Assembly: GCA_016934535.1 (NCBI GenBank)
Contig: JAFGSQ010000011.1
Coordinates: forward strand, 1-43,481
DNA: 43,481 nucleotides
Direction: 5' to 3'
Source: a candidate division WOR-3 bacterium
GTDB taxonomy: Bacteria; SDB-A
Notes under the pieces: model-generated
Databases searched by the model: none
What the model was told of the DNA's origin: nothing
The model's input: the letters and a program-made list of their open reading frames with translations, nothing else
Part shown: positions 176 to 20,205 of the stretch, in pieces
How the letters are laid out: every line of letters begins with the position of its first letter
Position numbering within the stretch: the stretch's first letter is position 1
Position numbers and translations under genes: made by a program

Positions 176-521
176 GGGGGCGAAAAGGTTTCGACGGGAC
201 TGAATGTCTCAGAGCTGCACGCCGGGCTGCCGATGCTCGTCAAAAAACGGCAAAAAATCAACTGCCAACAGCAGTTATTCACTAGCCGCTTAATTTAGCG
301 GCTCCTCTGCTTCTCTGTCGCCTGTCGTGGAGAATGTCAGGGGTCGCGCAGACAGGCTACCCACTGAACCTTGCGCGGGGGGACGGGGGAAACAAATAGC
401 GCTGGTCCCGAAAAAATCTTGTCCGGAGGAGGTTTTCGGGATGAGAACAAATTCCGGAATAAGCGTGTAGGTGTTTTGAAGGCTACTATCTCGGACGCGG
501 GTTCAATTCCCGCCGCCTCCA
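176..521 (+). ncRNA. ssrA: tmRNA; tag peptide (A)ANSSYSLAA* encoded at 264-293
   Basis: 5' GGGGGCGAAAAGGTTTCGAC and 3' GGACGCGGGTTCAATTCCCGCCGCCTCCA form the tRNA-Ala-like domain with a T-arm. The internal ORF GCC AAC AGC AGT TAT TCA CTA GCC GCT TAA ends in the typical LAA. CCA is not encoded. Confidence 0.97.
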
Positions 522-4101: not shown

Positions 4102-5463
4102 TTGAAAAACGGCGACACAAATAAATTTGATCCTGAAAGCATATCCTATCTAAATATATGGACGTTATCATGGCCCGTGATGGTCTCTTCTCTCGGATTC
4201 ACATTGCTCAATACGGTCGACATGTTCTGGATAGGAAAATTAGGTCACGTGTCCGTCGCCGCCGTCAGCATAGTCGGTTCACTTTTCTGGCTGTTGATGT
4301 CCTCGATTGCTTTGGTTTCGTCAGGCACCGTGGCTTTTGTATCCAGGGCCGCAGGATCCGGCGACAGTGATTTGCTCAAAAACAGCATATCTTTATCACT
4401 ATTTTCATCTTTGATAATATCGGTCTTGATTGTCGTCCCTTCATTTATATTTGCCAGGCAAATACTCGGTTTTTTCGGAGCCGAAAACAATGTTCTCAGA
4501 GAAGGTGCGGTCTATTTGTATATTATGCTCACAGGTTTTCCCGTTATTTTCATTTTTGAAATTTTCAACAACGCTTTCTTCGGCATTGGCGATTCAAAGA
4601 CTCCAATGAAAATTACTTTCATCGCTCTTGTGATAAACATTATTTTGGACCCGTTTCTCGTGTTCGGCTGGTCTTTTTTCCCGAGACTCGAAACAGCTGG
4701 AGCCGCTATTGCGTCAGTGTTTTCACTTTTCGCAGGTTTCTCCATTTATCTATTGTTTTTCTTCAGAAAATTCGGTTTCATCGTCCCTGCCGTTCACACG
4801 AAAATCTTCTCTCAATTCTTCAAAACAGGAGTGCCCGCTTTTTTTTACGGTATCACGAGACCGATAACCGGAACACTTATGTACAGAATAGTGGCATTAT
4901 ACGGAACATCATCCATTGCGGCTTTCGGCATAGGCAGCAGAGTGATAGGAATAACATTTATATACATGGACGGACTCATGATCGCCGTACAGACCTTTGT
5001 AGGACAATTACTGGGAAAGAAAGACCCGAAAAAGGCTAAAAAAGCCGCCATGAGGTCCCTGAAAATGGGTTATTCAGTTCAGATTTTCACTTGCGCTTTC
5101 ATGTTTCTCTTTTCTGATAAAATTATAGCCTTTTTCAATACAAATCCTGACGTGCTTCTCAGCGGTTCTTCTTATTTGAAAGTGATAGGGATTTCGCTCG
5201 TTTTTTATCCTCTTTCTGCCACTTTCAGCGCCGTACACCGAGGTTCCGGTTACAACATACCGCCGCTGATAGCTTCTGTTGTCTCAAACTGGATAATAAA
5301 ATTGCCGCTCTCATACGCTCTTGCAAAGTATCTGGGACTTGATTATACAGGCGTCTGGATTGGAATTGGATTTTCACTTCTCATTGAATCCACGATATTA
5401 GCCTTCTACTACAAAAAAGGGGATTGGTCTCGACATTCAGTACCCCCGACCCCGTGCATATAA
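4102..5463 (+). CDS. MATE family efflux transporter
   Basis: About 12 TM segments; NTVDMFWIGKLG, GDSKTPM, NIILDP and GAAIAS motifs. Confidence 0.92.
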   Translation: MKNGDTNKFDPESISYLNIWTLSWPVMVSSLGFTLLNTVDMFWIGKLGHVSVAAVSIVGSLFWLLMSSIALVSSGTVAFVSRAAGSGDSDLLKNSISLSLFSSLIISVLIVVPSFIFARQILGFFGAENNVLREGAVYLYIMLTGFPVIFIFEIFNNAFFGIGDSKTPMKITFIALVINIILDPFLVFGWSFFPRLETAGAAIASVFSLFAGFSIYLLFFFRKFGFIVPAVHTKIFSQFFKTGVPAFFYGITRPITGTLMYRIVALYGTSSIAAFGIGSRVIGITFIYMDGLMIAVQTFVGQLLGKKDPKKAKKAAMRSLKMGYSVQIFTCAFMFLFSDKIIAFFNTNPDVLLSGSSYLKVIGISLVFYPLSATFSAVHRGSGYNIPPLIASVVSNWIIKLPLSYALAKYLGLDYTGVWIGIGFSLLIESTILAFYYKKGDWSRHSVPPTPCI

Positions 5464-5468
5464 TATCG

Positions 5469-5497
5469 TTGCGTTTTTTATTAATTGTCTCTAAAAT
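5469..5497 (+). promoter_or_regulatory. Putative sigma70 promoter of selenoprotein candidate 1
   Basis: TTGCGT-N17-TAAAAT, then RBS GGGGAGG (5514-5520) before ATG 5528. Confidence 0.5.
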
Positions 5498-5527
5498 GAA
5501 TAATCTTCAAATAGGGGAGGTTTGTTT

Positions 5528-7411
5528 ATGCTATCAATAATGTTGTCGTTGTTGATCGGTTTCAACACCGCTCAATACGTAGTAAACGGCGACTTCGAGC
5601 AGGATCTCAACACGGGATGGAAACAGGTTTTAAACGGAGCCGGAGCAAGCATAACCCGTTCCACCGCCTTTGATCCTGATCCCAATTACGAAGTTCGAGT
5701 CGGTAAATCCACAGGAGGAGGGTACGCCCTTCTTTCACAGACAATTTCGGTTCCGACAACCGATTTGGTTTTTTCAGCCAACGCAAAAATTTACGCTGTG
5801 GCCACTTCGACTGCCTGGGCTGGATCGGCGCTCATTCTGAAGTACCTGGACCAGAACGGAAATATTCTCGGTGAGACGAGAATTTGCGCAAAGACCGGGT
5901 ATTGTCCTTGGGCAAACTCACCGACAATGCATTTGATAGTAGTTCCGGATTCCCAATGGCACAATCATTCTTTCAACGTCAACACCGAACTTGCAAATCT
6001 CACGGCTGTAAATCCAGACAACGTAAAAAATATAGAAATTGCCCTGTTTGACTCAACGTACGATTGTTGAGGGGGCTCAGAATTGGCGGAGGTCTCCGCC
6101 GACGATGTGACACTGTCTTACACAGGCTCAACCCCTTACATAGTCCTTGTTCAGACAACCATAGACGACGATGCCGGAAACAACAACGGCAGACTCGACC
6201 CAGGAGAAACGATAGATCTCACCGCAACTATAAGGAATGCCGGCGGGGTCAATTTCACCAACGTCTCTTCACATTTGATATCAACAGACCCCTACATCAA
6301 CATAACCGATAACACAGGTGTATTCGGCGCTCTCATGATAGACAGTGTAAAAACTAACAATTCGGATCCCTTCACTTTGACTTGCAACGCTTCAACTCCC
6401 GAAGGGCATGAAGCCTCGTTCGGCCTTGTGATTAACGACGGAAGTTATTATGACACACTTGAATTTATAATAGTTGCGGGACATTATTCTTACCTCGTAC
6501 TCAATCTCGACGCCACCCCTCAGTCCGGAAATAACATCGACAGTATTTTGGACGCTCTCGGATATTCGGGAACCGTCACCGCGTCTCTTCCTTCCGATCT
6601 CTCCATATACAGGACTTTGTTCGTATGCCTCGGAATTTATCCAAACAACACAGTAGTTTCAGCTGGAGGCGAAATAGCGAACTCTATTGTGGCTTTCCTC
6701 AATAACGGCGGAAGCGTTTACATGGAGGGCGGCGACATGTGGTACTACGATATCGGGACCGGAGGTCACGATTTCGGACCGATGTTCGGTATACAACCTG
6801 TCGCTGACGGATCAGGTAATCTCGGACCTGTTGTAGGCATTTCAGGCACCTTCACTGCGACGATGAATTTCAACTACGGCGGTGAAAACAGCTACATAGA
6901 CCAGATAAACGCCACCGGAACCGGTACAGTTATATTCAGTGACGGAAACGACAACTACAACTGCGGAGTGGCTAATCAAACCTCAACATACAGAACCGTC
7001 GGCACGAGTTTCGAGCTCGGAATGCTCACAGATGCAGCTGACGCTTCGACCAGATCCGATTTACTCGACTCTATAATGACCTTCTTCCTGGAAGGATTGA
7101 ACGCCGTCGCCGAACAACCTGTTGTAAATCCATCGCCGACTTCTCTCATGATCACCCCGAACCCGTTCGTAAAACATGTGACTATAAGTTTCACAGCTCC
7201 GTCCGGAGTTACATCCGGAATGGAAATATTTGACATCTCGGGAAGAATAGTCAGAGAGTTTTCCTTCGGACAATCGGAAAACGACCGGATAGTCACGGTA
7301 AATTGGGACGGTAAAGACGGAAACGGAATTGAAGTGCCGGAGGGCGTCTATTTTGTCAATGTCATAGCCGGAGAAAGTTCGGGTTCAGAAAAACTGATTT
7401 TGGTAAAATAA
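5528..7411 (+). CDS. Candidate secreted selenoprotein, paralog 1 (627 aa; TGA at codon 181 read as Sec; C-terminal FlgD/T9SS-type domain)
   Basis: ORFs 5522-6070 and 6083-7411 are in the same frame, separated by a single TGA (6068-6070) in ...YDC-TGA-GGSELAEVSADD. A SECIS-like hairpin follows. Hydrophobic N-terminus; C-terminus PNPF...IFDISGR...WDGKD...GVYFV...KLILVK. Confidence 0.8.
6083..6102 (+). promoter_or_regulatory. Bacterial SECIS-like hairpin, copy 1
   Basis: TTGGCGGA-GGTC-TCCGCCGA: 8-bp stem with one G-U pair and a GGUC loop starting 21 nt after the TGA. Confidence 0.78.
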
Positions 7412-7412
7412 T

Positions 7413-7437
7413 AAAAGGGGGCCACTGCCCCCTTTTT
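7413..7437 (+). terminator. Intrinsic terminator after paralog 1
   Basis: AAAAGGGGGC-CACT-GCCCCCTTTTT hairpin with a U tract. Confidence 0.85.
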
Positions 7438-7526
7438 CTTTTCACTGATTTCTTTTCCGTTTATTTGCGCCGGCAGCAGAAAGCGAATGATATTGCAGTT
7501 TAAAAATCACATAGCGGGAGCCTAGC

Positions 7527-9410
7527 ATGATTGGCATACTTTTTTCTTTACTAATCGGATCCAACTCCGCTCATTATATGATAAACGGGAATTTTGAACA
7601 GGATCTTTCCTTGGGATGGGAACAGTTCATCAATGCCTGGGGCGCTGAAATAATCCGCGGAACAAATTTTGACCCGGATCCCGATTTCGAAGTCAAGGTC
7701 ATCAAACCTACCGGCGGAGGGCACGTAATTCTGGGCCAGATTGCGTTCGTTCCGACAACAGACATCGTTTTTTCAGCTGATATTAAATTATTCGCGAGCG
7801 CCACGTCGACATCCTGGTCGGCAGCGGCTCTGGTGATAGGATATATAGACGCTGAAAACTCCCTGCTCGGTGAGACGAGAATATGCGACAGGACAAGCTA
7901 TTGTCCGTGGATCAGCACTCCGACGATACATCTGATGGAGGCTACAGACTCCATGTGGCATTATTACACTTTCAATTTGAGCGACGAACTAACCAATCTT
8001 TCCGGAATAAATCCTGATAATGTCCAAAAAATCAGAATAGAGCTTCTCGACACTTCTTATAATTGTTGAGGCGCTTCGCAATTGGCGGAGGTCTCCGCCG
8101 ACAATATATCTCTTTCGTATAGCGGTCCGAACCCGTACGTCTCAATCATCAGCAAAACAGTCCTGGATCTGACCGGAAACAATGACGGACATCTCGATCC
8201 GGGAGAAACAGCCGATCTGACAGTCACTCTGAAAAACATAGGCGGGGTGAATTTCTCCACCTTGACGGCAACTCTTGTCTCAGACGATCCGGATGTTTCT
8301 GTAACAGACAACAGCGCAATTTACGGGGTAATAGCAATAGACAGTTCCAAGACGAATTCATCTGATCCGTTCACCGTCGTCTGTTCCTCATCGGCGCAGG
8401 AAGGGAGGGAGGCGCTTCTGAAACTGATTCTCAGAGACGGATCTTACTGCGATACTATGCCTTTGACATTGACAATCGGCATGTACGATTATCTCGTCCT
8501 CAATACAGATCCTACTCCCGTATCCGGATTCATCATAGACAGCGTTCTTTCCACGCTCGGTTATTCAGGCGTTTACACAGTAGAACTGCCTTCCGATCTG
8601 TCCTATTTCAAGTCGCTTTTCATCTGCCTCGGAGTCTGGCCCGACAATACAATCATACAACCGGGCAGCGATTACGAGACGGCTCTTGTAAATTTCATAA
8701 ATTCCGGCGGAAACGTATTTATGGAAGGCGGAGATGTATGGTTTAACGACCCTCTTGCCGGAGGTTGTAATTTCGGTCCGCTGTTCGGCATACAATCTTC
8801 CGGCGAAGCTTCAAACAACCTCGGACCGGTGTACGGTATTTCCGGGGCTTTCACTGCAGGCATGAATTTCGGATACGCGGGAGAAAGCAATTTCATAGAC
8901 TGTTTGAATCCCGTGGGAAACGGATTCAGAATACTTAGAGATCCGAACGACAATTACAACTGCGGAGTCGCAAACCAGACTGCCGATTACAAGACAGTAG
9001 GCATGAGTTGCGAACTGGGTATGCTCACCGACTATTCGGGCGTATCAACCAGATCAGCTTTGCTGGATTCAATAATGAGATTCTTCGGAGAAGAGGCAAA
9101 TTCTGCCGAGGAAATTCCGATCAAGACGGGTCCCGTTAATCCGATTTCTGCTTTCCCCAATCCGTTCACCGAACGAATTCTGATAACTTTCACGGCACCC
9201 ACAAACGTTATTTCAAGAGCCGAAATATTCGACATATCAGGAAGAACAGTCCGCGAATTCACTTTCGGCGCATCCGGCGTTGACAGATTAGTGACTATTG
9301 AATGGAACGGGAAAGATGAACAGGGAAATGGACTTCCCCGTGGCGTTTATTTTGTTAAAGTATCGGCTGGCGAAAATTCGGACCAGGAAAAAATGATCTT
9401 TGTTGAATAA
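7527..9410 (+). CDS. Candidate secreted selenoprotein, paralog 2 (627 aa; TGA at codon 181 read as Sec; C-terminal FlgD/T9SS-type domain)
   Basis: ORFs 7527-8069 and 8082-9410 are in the same frame, separated by a single TGA (8067-8069) in ...YNC-TGA-GASQLAEVSADN. It has the identical hairpin and aligns end to end with paralog 1. Confidence 0.8.
8082..8101 (+). promoter_or_regulatory. Bacterial SECIS-like hairpin, copy 2
   Basis: TTGGCGGA-GGTC-TCCGCCGA, identical to copy 1 and at the same +21 loop spacing. Confidence 0.78.
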
Positions 9411-9436
9411 AAAAGGGGGTGAAAACCCCCTTTTTT
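9411..9436. terminator. Bidirectional intrinsic terminator
   Basis: AAAAGGGGGT-GAAA-ACCCCCTTTTTT between convergent genes. Confidence 0.85.
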
Positions 9437-9637
9437 ACCTTTTTTTATTCAGGTAGTATTTCCTTCTGTCGTCGTTAAATTTTTCAATTGAATATCTGAG
9501 CATAGTTCTGGGCATTTTCGTGCAGTGTTCATCCAGGAATTTTTCGAGGACAGGTTTGTCTTTCCTGCTTTCCCGGAACATGCGTTTTGCCTGAGTTCTT
9601 TTCTGATTCGGTTCAGTGTTATTTTTTCAGAACTCAA
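9435..9637 (-). pseudogene. Internally deleted DNA alkylation repair (AlkD-like) gene remnant
   Basis: N-terminal frame MSSEKITLNRIRKELRQNACSGKA is joined out of frame to RKDKPVLEKFLDEHCTKMPRTMLRYSIEKFNDDRRKYYLNKKR*, which resembles the AlkD-family C-terminus. Confidence 0.72.
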
Positions 9638-18368: not shown

Positions 18369-18812
18369 TTATGAAGAGAAAATTCTAATACCATTTTTAC
18401 CGTCTTTTGATGATTTATCCGTATAAAGGATCTGTCTCAAATTACAATCCAGCGTGTCGCGGCATTCAATAATATCAATTTCTAAGGTTCCCCGCAGCTC
18501 CGGTGCCTCTTCATCAATTAGAGTGCCGTTGGTTTCTATCGTGACTCCTAATTTCATTTCTTTCAGTCCCTTTATTACTCCGAGTATTTCCGGGTGAAGA
18601 AAAGGTTCGCCTCCGGTAAGCTTTACAGATGAAAGACCTATTTCCTTTGCGTCCTGGATTATCTTCTTTAATTCGTTCCAAGGAAGACATTTTCCGGCAT
18701 TTTTTTCGAAATGAGGATTTATCCAGCAATGCCTGCATTTTAAGTTACAGCTTCCCGTCAAATACATGTATATGGTTCTCAGAGGCCGGGTGTTACTCGA
18801 AGAATTCGGCAC
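18369..18812 (-). pseudogene. Truncated radical SAM protein (ScmF-like N-terminus)
   Basis: YLTGSCNLKCRHCWI, LTGGEP and ETNGTL are present, but similarity stops after about 100 aa. There is no complete barrel and no SPASM domain. Confidence 0.65.
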
Positions 18813-20205
18813 CGGTTTCTTCCTTAAGTTTCCTGTAGCAGTCCTGCATACTTGGCAATATGAAATTTTCTGCGCTCACACCGGCCAGGGCAGGACAACT
18901 GCCGTTGCAGAACATGTTCCATTCGCAGTCCATACAGGCTTGAACGGCACTCATTGGCACAAGTCTTCTTTCTTTCATCTTTTTCAGGACCGGACTATTC
19001 ATCCATATATCCTTGACGGAATCTCTGTTTATCTTTCCAAGCTCTATGTCCGGAAGCATGTTGCAGGGAACTATCGTCCCGTCATGATGAACCGCAAGCT
19101 TGCTGAACACGCATCCGCAGGCGGTCAGGTAATCCATACCCGGTTCCGGTTTTATTCCGTATTTTTTCATCTTCTCCATTTTTCTGTAAAGGTGCCATTT
19201 GGCGAGAGGACCGGCCTGAGCCACTATTCTACTGTCGTATTTTTCTTCCAGGTGCCCCAGCAATTTTATGGCTTCGACCTGCATAAAAGGATTCAGGGCT
19301 ATGTCTTCCTTGTTCCAGCAACCCGCTCCCATCGGCATGGCGTCGTTGGTGCTGAATGAATGAACGCCAAGGTCTTCGAGAAGAAATTTCGCCGCGTCTT
19401 CGAGATCTTCCAAATTGTGCCTGTTGACTGTAAGCCTTACAGCGATGTTCAGGCCGGCTTCTTTCGCCAGCTTCAAGCCCCCTACAGCTCTTTTGAAGCT
19501 TCCCTGACCTCTCGACAAATCGTGTATCTCTTCGCACGAACCGTCTATCGAAAACTGCATGTAAGATAAACGCGCGGCTCTTTTACCCTTGAAGAATTCT
19601 TCGATGCTTTTTTCGTTTACGAGAGTCCCGTTTGTCAGTATCGAATATCTCATGTTGTTTTCTACAACTGAATCAATGAGCTCCCAGATGTCTTCTCTTA
19701 CAAAAACCTCCCCTCCGCTTAGGCAAATTTCTTCGACGGCGAGGTTTTTCAATTCAGAATAAAAGTCAGACCACTCATTTATGTACAAGTCATCCCGGGT
19801 TTTCATCTCCCGTTCATAAAAACAGTATTTGCATTTCAGGTTGCACTTTTTTGTCACGGACACGTCTATAGATTTCGGTGATTCACCGGAATGGATAAAA
19901 TCTTCTCTTCTTGGAACCTTTTCAGAGGCGTTTTTTGAATGTGCGAATCCTCCGGAAACAAGACTTTCCAGAAATTCGGATATTTCTTTCCCGACGTCTT
20001 CTTTTTCAGAAGTGTCAAATTCATCCTTCAGCGCATTTTCAATGTCTTTTGAAGAGTTGCTTCCGTCGAGCATTCTCCAGATAAATATTCCGGTTGAGTT
20101 GAGATATCTTCTCGCGCCTGTGTCCGGATGAAAAAGGCTCGCCGAATTGTCTCCCAAAAGCCTTACTGAAACTGAATCGTCGGAACAATAGTATTTTTTC
20201 AACAC
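18793..20205 (-). CDS. PqqD/RRE domain fused to a radical SAM/SPASM maturase (ScmD-ScmE-like)
   Basis: N-terminal LNSTGIFIWRMLDG...EFLESL (PqqD-like); CNLKCKYC and LSGGE; SPASM C...DGTIVPC...CMDC.....CNGSC. Confidence 0.85.
   Translation of the reverse strand: MLKKYYCSDDSVSVRLLGDNSASLFHPDTGARRYLNSTGIFIWRMLDGSNSSKDIENALKDEFDTSEKEDVGKEISEFLESLVSGGFAHSKNASEKVPRREDFIHSGESPKSIDVSVTKKCNLKCKYCFYEREMKTRDDLYINEWSDFYSELKNLAVEEICLSGGEVFVREDIWELIDSVVENNMRYSILTNGTLVNEKSIEEFFKGKRAARLSYMQFSIDGSCEEIHDLSRGQGSFKRAVGGLKLAKEAGLNIAVRLTVNRHNLEDLEDAAKFLLEDLGVHSFSTNDAMPMGAGCWNKEDIALNPFMQVEAIKLLGHLEEKYDSRIVAQAGPLAKWHLYRKMEKMKKYGIKPEPGMDYLTACGCVFSKLAVHHDGTIVPCNMLPDIELGKINRDSVKDIWMNSPVLKKMKERRLVPMSAVQACMDCEWNMFCNGSCPALAGVSAENFILPSMQDCYRKLKEETGAEFFE

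Follow-up and report, generated by a model that had tools for sequence, protein, structure and literature searches.

Two tandem genes of a candidate division WOR-3 bacterium carry a covarying hairpin after an in-frame UGA, very probably a bacterial SECIS element

Known SECIS elements and the two tandem hairpins

The closest described relatives of the element reported here are the selenocysteine insertion sequences (SECIS elements) of bacterial selenoprotein genes, among them that of fdhF, whose apical GU is recognised by SelB. The fdhF element of Salmonella contains GCAGGUCUGC, and the stretch quoted for it runs UGACACGGCCCAUCGGUUGCAGGUCUGCACC...; a bulged U, U18, and the identity of the GGUC hairpin are both important for its function, according to the excerpted text of PMC4489274. 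More generally, excerpts from the literature place the apical loop of bacterial SECIS elements 16-37 nt from the UGA (PMC10778597) and describe this loop as small, with a conserved G (PMC1088965). Here we analyse a stretch of 43,481 nt (contig JAFGSQ010000011.1, called C19 below; the whole stretch is referred to as the window) from the 2.23-Mb, 76-contig genome of a candidate division WOR-3 bacterium, in which two tandem genes each contain one in-frame TGA followed by a hairpin with a GGUC loop. We are highly confident that these hairpins, at 6083-6102 and 8082-8101, are bacterial SECIS elements, and as RNA they are of the canonical kind and not a new type. A first-pass annotation of the window had proposed a functional SECIS at this place, and the proposal has held up on three grounds: the selenocysteine (Sec) machinery of the genome is complete, the hairpin covaries in all distinct TGA-bearing homologs collected (47/47), and it is absent from homologs with a Cys codon or without the TGA. 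The features of the two genes that the argument needs are as follows.

5528..7411, + strand: candidate selenoprotein gene copy 1, 627 aa, with Sec predicted at residue 181, the sole in-frame TGA
6068..6070, + strand: UGA predicted to be read as Sec in copy 1, context D-C-U-G, in a column shared by comparable homologs
6083..6102, + strand: very probable SECIS hairpin of copy 1 (5' arm 6083-6090, loop GGUC 6091-6094, 3' arm 6095-6102), within the L-A-E-V-S-A-D codons
7527..9410, + strand: candidate selenoprotein gene copy 2, 627 aa, with Sec predicted at residue 181, 55% identical to copy 1
8067..8069, + strand: UGA predicted to be read as Sec in copy 2, context N-C-U-G
8082..8101, + strand: very probable SECIS hairpin of copy 2, of the same sequence as the hairpin of copy 1

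The two genes are tandem paralogs that align without gaps (nucleotide identity 60.7%, third-position identity 41%), and each is a 627-codon frame with that TGA as its only stop. Around the TGA, written as U, both copies read Y-D/N-C-U-G-(G/A)-S-(E/Q)-L-A-E-V-S-A-D. A third paralog, on contig C18 of the same genome, shares 40% identity and also has one TGA. Re-reading both copies bore out the earlier observation of a 23-nt string, AATTGGCGGAGGTCTCCGCCGAC, that is identical at 6081-6103 and 8080-8102; it begins 10 nt past the TGA in each copy, and the spacers between TGA and hairpin are, as had also been noted, equal in length (12 nt) and unlike in sequence (GGGGGCTCAGAA and GGCGCTTCGCAA). Within the string, TTGGCGGA and TCCGCCGA enclose GGTC and form 8 pairs, one of them G.U, and in both copies the loop starts at the 21st nt after the UGA (20 nt between), just as first described. 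This 23-nt run is the longest identical stretch of the two genes, the runner-up being 17 nt, and a run of at least 23 nt arose in 0.44% of 20,000 simulated trials that used codon-position-specific identities.

The label of an fdhF-type loop, given in the first pass, is apt for the A-GGUC-U apex and for the placing of the hairpin inside the open reading frame (ORF) after the UGA, and it fails on the bulged U, so far as the excerpted fdhF text describes that element. By the same text, GGUC starts 18 nt after the UGA in Salmonella, compared with 20 nt in the window genes. The stem sequences are unrelated, no long conserved lower helix reaches back to the UGA, and the host gene does not encode a molybdoenzyme. 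Measured against the general bacterial SECIS (bSECISearch, Zhang and Gladyshev, as represented in the excerpts), the window hairpins agree in spacing and in having a small G-containing loop; their apex is tighter than the loose general consensus, since in this family the GU is invariant and the bases flanking it covary between G-C and A-U. A further likeness is found within the same genome, where the SECIS elements of formate dehydrogenase (FDH) and of a peroxiredoxin (Prx) have stems of 7 bp topped by a GGUC(U) apex that lies 17-18 nt downstream of the UGA, although their stems and host proteins differ from those of the window genes. Presumably the FDH, Prx and window hairpins are all read by the same SelB.

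Conservation of the UGA and covariation of the hairpin

The position of the TGA is strongly conserved. The GTDB phylum of the source comprises only 6 species genomes, and in these each of the seven copies that reach across the site has a single TGA, always at the same column (the copy in genome G003, which a contig end cuts before the site, was left out). When an alignment of the N-terminal domain was used to scan 185,579 species genomes, 38 loci were recovered, 2 of which end before the site; TGA stands at the column in 34 of the 36 others, 3 of the 34 being duplicates of sequences from the phylum genomes. The two remaining loci, L077 and L079, are distant (33% and 25% identity) and have neither TGA nor Cys at the site. 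A hidden Markov model search of 1.84 billion cluster representatives gave 266 matches at E <= 0.001, and the best 150 of them include 113 proteins, about 185 aa long, whose last residue falls at the site (C in 78, G in 26), together with 16 that read through it, 14 fragments that end earlier and 7 that behave otherwise. From the point at which these 113 proteins end, it would appear that their genes have a TGA there as well. The residue before Sec is mostly C, with G, S or T in some subfamilies. One full-length homolog, the deposited protein P0004 (JGI, 628 aa), shows W in place of Sec (CWG); the W is most simply a gene call made under a code in which TGA means Trp, on a short contig, and entries of this kind can masquerade as homologs without Sec.

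Homologs with Cys in place of Sec do exist. Cys occupies the Sec column in P0094, P0125, P0146 and P0191, so that the pairing of Sec and Cys at one position is found in this family. When metagenomes were scanned with P0125, a Cys-form protein, 23 loci came back, 14 of them covering the N-terminal domain; TGA is present in 11 of these 14, and the Sec column is TGC in three loci, L087 and L088 (90-100% identity to P0125) and L089 (61%). These Cys forms serve as controls for the hairpin. If the hairpin region were conserved merely for its protein strand, Cys-codon homologs would be expected to keep the hairpin equally well; it is absent in 3/3 TGC homologs, which read GCC GAA GTC TGC GTG/GCC GAC, and all 11 metagenome relatives with TGA carry GGCGGA-AGUU-UCCGCC, at -11.3 to -13.5 kcal/mol. 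The distant, TGA-free L077 and L079 lack it as well (2/2). Because the hairpin is present in TGA homologs and absent in TGC and TGA-free ones, it tracks the UGA and not the protein strand. A side observation on the Cys forms L087-L089 is that they have a second Cys eight residues on (C-x8-C, in AEVCVD or AEVCAD), at the place where L090-L100, the Sec forms, use a Ser codon that takes part in hairpin pairing; this second Cys may be a disulfide partner that has no counterpart in the Sec forms.

Covariation was followed in 38 distinct TGA-bearing sequences and then, after nine metagenome sequences had been added, in 47. The first-pass annotation had called for a search for covariation across homologs, and the outcome is clear: the hairpin is kept, with compensatory changes, in 47/47. 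In the helix that joins columns 29-35 with 40-46, 95.7-96.3% of cells are paired, compared with only 25-65% (47 sequences) when the partner is slid by 1-3 columns; the covariation score was matched by none of 500 shuffles, and RNAalifold, unaided, predicts the same 7-pair helix. Two of the pairs, 31-44 and 32-43, are invariant; they fall on the GC of two Ala codons, which makes them uninformative. Double changes occur at four pairs. Pair 33-42 (GC 40, AU 5, CG 1, UA 1) and pair 30-45 (GC 43, AU 2, CG 1, GU 1) each join two synonymous third positions (n=47), so a protein constraint cannot explain their covariation. Pair 34-41 (GC 23, AU 18, GU 6, never A.C; n=47) couples the first base of a Glu/Lys codon with the second base of a Ser/Phe/Leu codon, and therefore the peptide is AEVSAD or AKV(F/L)AD, with AEVFAD as the G.U intermediate and AKVSAD never. 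The same Glu/Lys codon ends in G in 38/47 sequences, the other nine having GAA paired with GTT, against a genome-wide usage of GAG for 23% of Glu and AAG for 21% of Lys; all three paralogs use the G-ending codon.

Two details of the hairpin as first described need to be narrowed. Its stem has 8 bp in the window copies, and only 6-7 of these pairs are conserved in the family, the outermost U-A being found in 7/38 sequences. Its GGUC loop is that of 37/47 homologs and is not invariant, with AGUU in nine and GGUU in one. What is invariant is the central GU (47/47), and the first and last bases of the loop can always pair (GC 37, AU 9, GU 1). This exchange of G-C for A-U at loop positions 1 and 4 suggests that SelB reads a two-base GU apex set on a closing pair. 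The nine AGUU sequences form one clade and probably stem from a single event. Spacing from UGA to loop is 20 nt in 30 sequences, 17 nt in 16 and 26 nt in one, every one of these values lying inside the 16-37 nt given for bacterial SECIS elements.

Selenocysteine machinery and alternative readings of the UGA

The source genome has a complete Sec machinery (SelA, SelB, SelD and tRNA-Sec). On contig C67, selA (505.5 bits) is the direct neighbour of selB (308.7 bits), and SelB carries the SECIS-binding wing domain PF09107 (SelB-wing_3; 45.2 bits). The selD gene (361 bits) has an in-frame TGA of its own, at the GUAAKI site, and tRNA-Sec is recognised both by Rfam (50.7 bits, over the cut-off) and by ARAGORN, which calls tRNA-SeC(tca). 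SelB is over the cut-off throughout the phylum (6/6 genomes) and in 4 of the 5 other sampled genomes that carry TGA homologs.

Several observations weigh against the SECIS assignment. The helix is a perfect one of 7-8 bp, without the upper-stem bulged U that fdhF has in the excerpted text of PMC4489274. Folding, which the first-pass annotation had named as a check, gave a divided answer: the hairpin is in the minimum free energy structure of copy 1, yet the energies are no better than those of shuffled sequences (z = -0.65 to -1.2 for single-sequence folds), and in copy 2 the minimum free energy structure is a competing fold, the hairpin appearing (7 of 8 pairs) only in the centroid of the 48-nt fold. 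As thermodynamics does not discriminate, the support for the hairpin comes from the comparison of homologs. Rfam, run over 5400-9500 with E up to 10, placed nothing at 6068-6103 or 8067-8102, a null that says little because the library may hold no general bacterial SECIS model. In G008, a 1.7-Mb assembly with a TGA homolog, no SelB match rose above the cut-off. The hairpin also overlaps a conserved beta-strand, A-x-V-x-A-D-D/N, and the non-Sec homologs keep this strand as protein (A-x-V/L-x-A/V-D-D/N), and some of the sequence conservation therefore reflects the protein. Finally, many of the 47 sequences are related and the AU loop class is one clade, which makes the independent events fewer than the counts suggest.

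Could the TGA simply be a true stop? Each locus would then hold two genes, one for a secreted domain of 180 aa and one for a protein of 442 aa, and the hairpin would be an intercistronic or coding coincidence. Public gene callers do split the locus in this way, as the 113 of the best 150 representatives that end at the site illustrate; a full-length query mostly matches pieces some 420-446 aa long, and an in-frame TTG lies at 6083. However, every TGA homolog keeps its reading frame through the TGA, and the TGC homologs are single unbroken ORFs through the site. In an AlphaFold2 (AF2) model, the residues that follow the TGA form the last strand of the same beta-sandwich as those before it (pLDDT, the predicted local distance difference test, 92-95), and the downstream piece would have an export tail for the type IX secretion system (T9SS) but no signal peptide. 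Covariation at synonymous sites points, moreover, to selection on RNA structure, and we regard a true stop as highly improbable. It is also very unlikely, in our judgement, that the hairpin stimulates read-through of the UGA by a near-cognate or suppressor tRNA that inserts Trp or Cys. In other systems, read-through of stop codons can be favoured by a structure downstream, and P0004 shows a W at the site; this explanation has to face, on the other side, a complete Sec machinery that includes a SelB with its SECIS-binding wing domain, the same loop and spacing after the UGA of FDH and Prx, where Sec positions are known, the alternation of Sec and Cys that is a selenoprotein signature, and the invariance of the apical GU.

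The last two alternatives deserve practically no credence. A genetic code in which TGA is an ordinary sense codon (code 4 or 25) would account for the frame being open when TGA is read as a residue, but TGA is the commonest stop of this genome and closes 573 of the 1066 stop-to-stop frames of at least 300 codons, which excludes a code with TGA as sense. Uninterrupted table 11 frames, up to 1125 aa long, fill the window, and while the real frame has exactly one TGA, a wrong frame read with TGA as U shows 13 such codons along with ordinary stops. As for pseudogenes or sequencing error, nothing speaks for them beyond the stop codon itself: the same TGA column recurs in the tandem copies, in the C18 paralog and in dozens of independent assemblies, and these genes have no other stops or frameshifts.

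Under the SECIS reading, which we prefer, a ribosome would arrive at the UGA at 6068 or 8067 with the hairpin 12-13 nt downstream, presenting its apical GU on a closing G-C pair. This GU apex, we infer, binds the C-terminal winged-helix domains of the organism's SelB, and SelB-GTP would bring Sec-tRNASec (anticodon UCA) to the A site. The UGA would be read as Sec and not as stop, selenium would be incorporated and a single protein of 627 aa would result. This product would be exported, its Sec sitting in a tight C-U-G turn of an N-terminal beta-sandwich that resembles a carbohydrate-binding module (CBM).

Host proteins and the selenoprotein candidates of the genome

The predicted architecture of the host protein is a signal peptide, the CBM-like beta-sandwich with the Sec, an immunoglobulin (Ig)-like domain, a GATase1-like alpha/beta domain and a T9SS sorting domain. 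Pfam and NCBIfam have no family over the cut-off in residues 1-540; the C-terminal tail alone is matched (cut-offs 27 bits for PF18962 and 23 bits for TIGR04183).

7157..7399, + strand: T9SS type A C-terminal sorting domain of copy 1, residues 544-624 (PF18962 29.6 bits, TIGR04183 36.7 bits)
9153..9398, + strand: T9SS type A C-terminal sorting domain of copy 2, residues 543-624 (PF18962 31.6 bits, TIGR04183 41.5 bits)

The AF2 model of residues 1-210, made from a 46-row alignment, is a beta-sandwich with a pLDDT of 91.8, in which residue 181 lies in a short turn joining the last two strands (168-178 and 185-198); Foldseek finds for it CBM16, CBM61, CBM11 and the sugar-binding domain of Fbs1 (TM about 0.42-0.53, E about 1e-6). 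Residues 196-545 (pLDDT 90.1) are modelled as an Ig-like sandwich followed by an alpha/beta domain resembling the GATase1-like domains of GH42 and GH164 enzymes and STM3548. Two points of likeness connect these proteins with known T9SS type A cargo: the sorting domain is over the cut-off, and the central region (residues ~200-540) occurs C-terminal to Peptidase_C25 in other proteins. Every full N-terminus examined starts with a hydrophobic stretch like that of a signal peptide, and from this together with the sorting domain we would expect export to the cell surface or the medium. A T9SS cargo reported to contain Sec was not found in the literature searched.

Thioredoxin reductase offers a comparison for the Sec site, as its vicinal Cys-Sec redox centre is GCUG. 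The window proteins are similar in having adjacent C and U followed by G in an exposed place, here a turn; they differ in that they are exported (as predicted), have a CBM-like beta-sandwich, show no evidence of reductase activity and belong to a family in which the preceding Cys is not conserved. A C-U selenenylsulfide is possible in the window copies, and since this Cys is not conserved, a vicinal selenenylsulfide would not be general in the family.

We also looked for other selenoprotein candidates across the genome, by scanning for TGA with 50 open codons on each side and applying a codon-usage score, folding and Pfam. Eleven candidates were found, seven of which carry or adjoin a T9SS tail.

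C61:56417-59104, - strand: formate dehydrogenase, HCARxUH, loop GGUCU, 18 nt after UGA
C60:19687-21738, - strand: formate dehydrogenase, HCARxUH, loop GGUCU, 18 nt after UGA
C2:21588-22307, - strand: AhpC/Prx, FTFVUATE, Sec at the peroxidatic position, loop GGUC, 17 nt after UGA
C56:23941-24861, - strand: selD with Sec, loop CGUGC, 16 nt after UGA
C19 (two) and C18: the window family, three paralogs, loop GGUC
C43:8213-9171, + strand, and C51:9594-10691, - strand: UxxC proteins L080 and L081, loop GGUC, with a stem of 4 bp in C51 and a strong one in C43
C11:208-1395, + strand, and C51:7622-8854, - strand: 'LCU' proteins L082 and L083, downstream folds unlike the GGUC pattern

The UxxC paralogs have a signal-peptide-like start and the motif RRPLLEIH-x4-U-x2-C, in which thioredoxin-like proteins have CxxC at the place of the UxxC; one has a Pfam T9SS sorting domain, and the other is cut by a contig end. 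The 'LCU' paralogs show a signal peptide, the L-C-U context and a T9SS sorting domain, with no other Pfam match. The 'LCU' gene on C11 adjoins the tRNA-Sec gene, and that on C51 adjoins the UxxC gene.

It had been suggested that the GGUC hairpin could serve as a search pattern for the selenoproteome of this organism, and in part it does, picking out both FDH genes, the peroxiredoxin and a UxxC protein while missing selD and the 'LCU' genes. Hairpins with a GGTC tetraloop and at least 6 pairs are rare (34 of the 15,334 tetraloops of the genome), and 7/34 come 12-30 nt after an ORF-embedded TGA, compared with 212/15,334 for all tetraloops. Two of the seven are doubtful: C26:43826 (-) and C45:4749 (-), 17 and 24 nt after the TGA, have the contexts SLCUPW and CRSRUCRE, and their frames look poor. 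The strict tetraloop scan missed both FDH elements, whose loops fold as GGUCU. Scanning by central dinucleotide showed no enrichment of GU (14 hits, against 27 for TC and 22 for TT), so that genome-wide it is the full GGUC that stands out and not any xGUx. The pattern is thus enriched and useful, and neither complete nor fully specific.

Some further observations concern the surroundings of the two genes. Directly after the stop of copy 1, GGGGGC-CACT-GCCCCC followed by a run of T at 7417-7437 looks like a terminator, and copy 2 probably has a similar element at about 9416-9440; weak Rfam matches at 7343-7493 and 9321-9470 coincide with these two terminator-like places. Should both act as terminators, each paralog would be transcribed as a unit of its own. 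A MatE transporter gene lies upstream and a TonB-dependent receptor gene downstream on the other strand, a neighbourhood that gives no functional lead. Elsewhere in the window are a tmRNA gene at 176-521 (+), with the tag peptide AKNQLPTAVIH according to ARAGORN, and, at 18793-20205 (-), the gene of a peptide-maturase-like radical SAM protein that has PqqD and SPASM domains.

The host genes probably represent an undescribed selenoprotein family. We did not find the family in Pfam, NCBIfam or the main texts of the literature searched, nor did that literature yield a paper on selenoproteins of WOR-3; and the main texts of the 2026 review PMC13188914, PMC12013277 (deep-Sep) and PMC13326102 (BSepDB) contain neither T9SS nor 'secretion' nor 'sorting domain'. 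As selenoproteins, its members would be unusual in several respects. They combine an export signal with a T9SS tail, their Sec would sit in a beta-sandwich of the carbohydrate-binding type and not in a thioredoxin-like redox fold, and the Sec form far outnumbers the Cys form in a widespread family, whereas most selenoprotein families, according to an excerpt of PMC12013277, include numerous Cys homologs. It is tempting to go one step further and to propose, tentatively and with slightly less than even confidence, that this undescribed, Sec-dominated family belongs to an 'extracellular selenoproteome', exported through the T9SS, in WOR-3/Stahlbacteria-like bacteria.

A SECIS element backed by covariation rescues two genes that annotation pipelines cut in two. 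If the wider proposal is true, the exposed Sec of the C-U-G turn might join its neighbouring Cys in a vicinal selenenylsulfide, serve to capture metals or metalloids, or work on a surface substrate outside the cell. Together with the two further T9SS-tailed candidate families of the same genome, the extracellular selenium biochemistry of uncultured candidate phyla would become testable.

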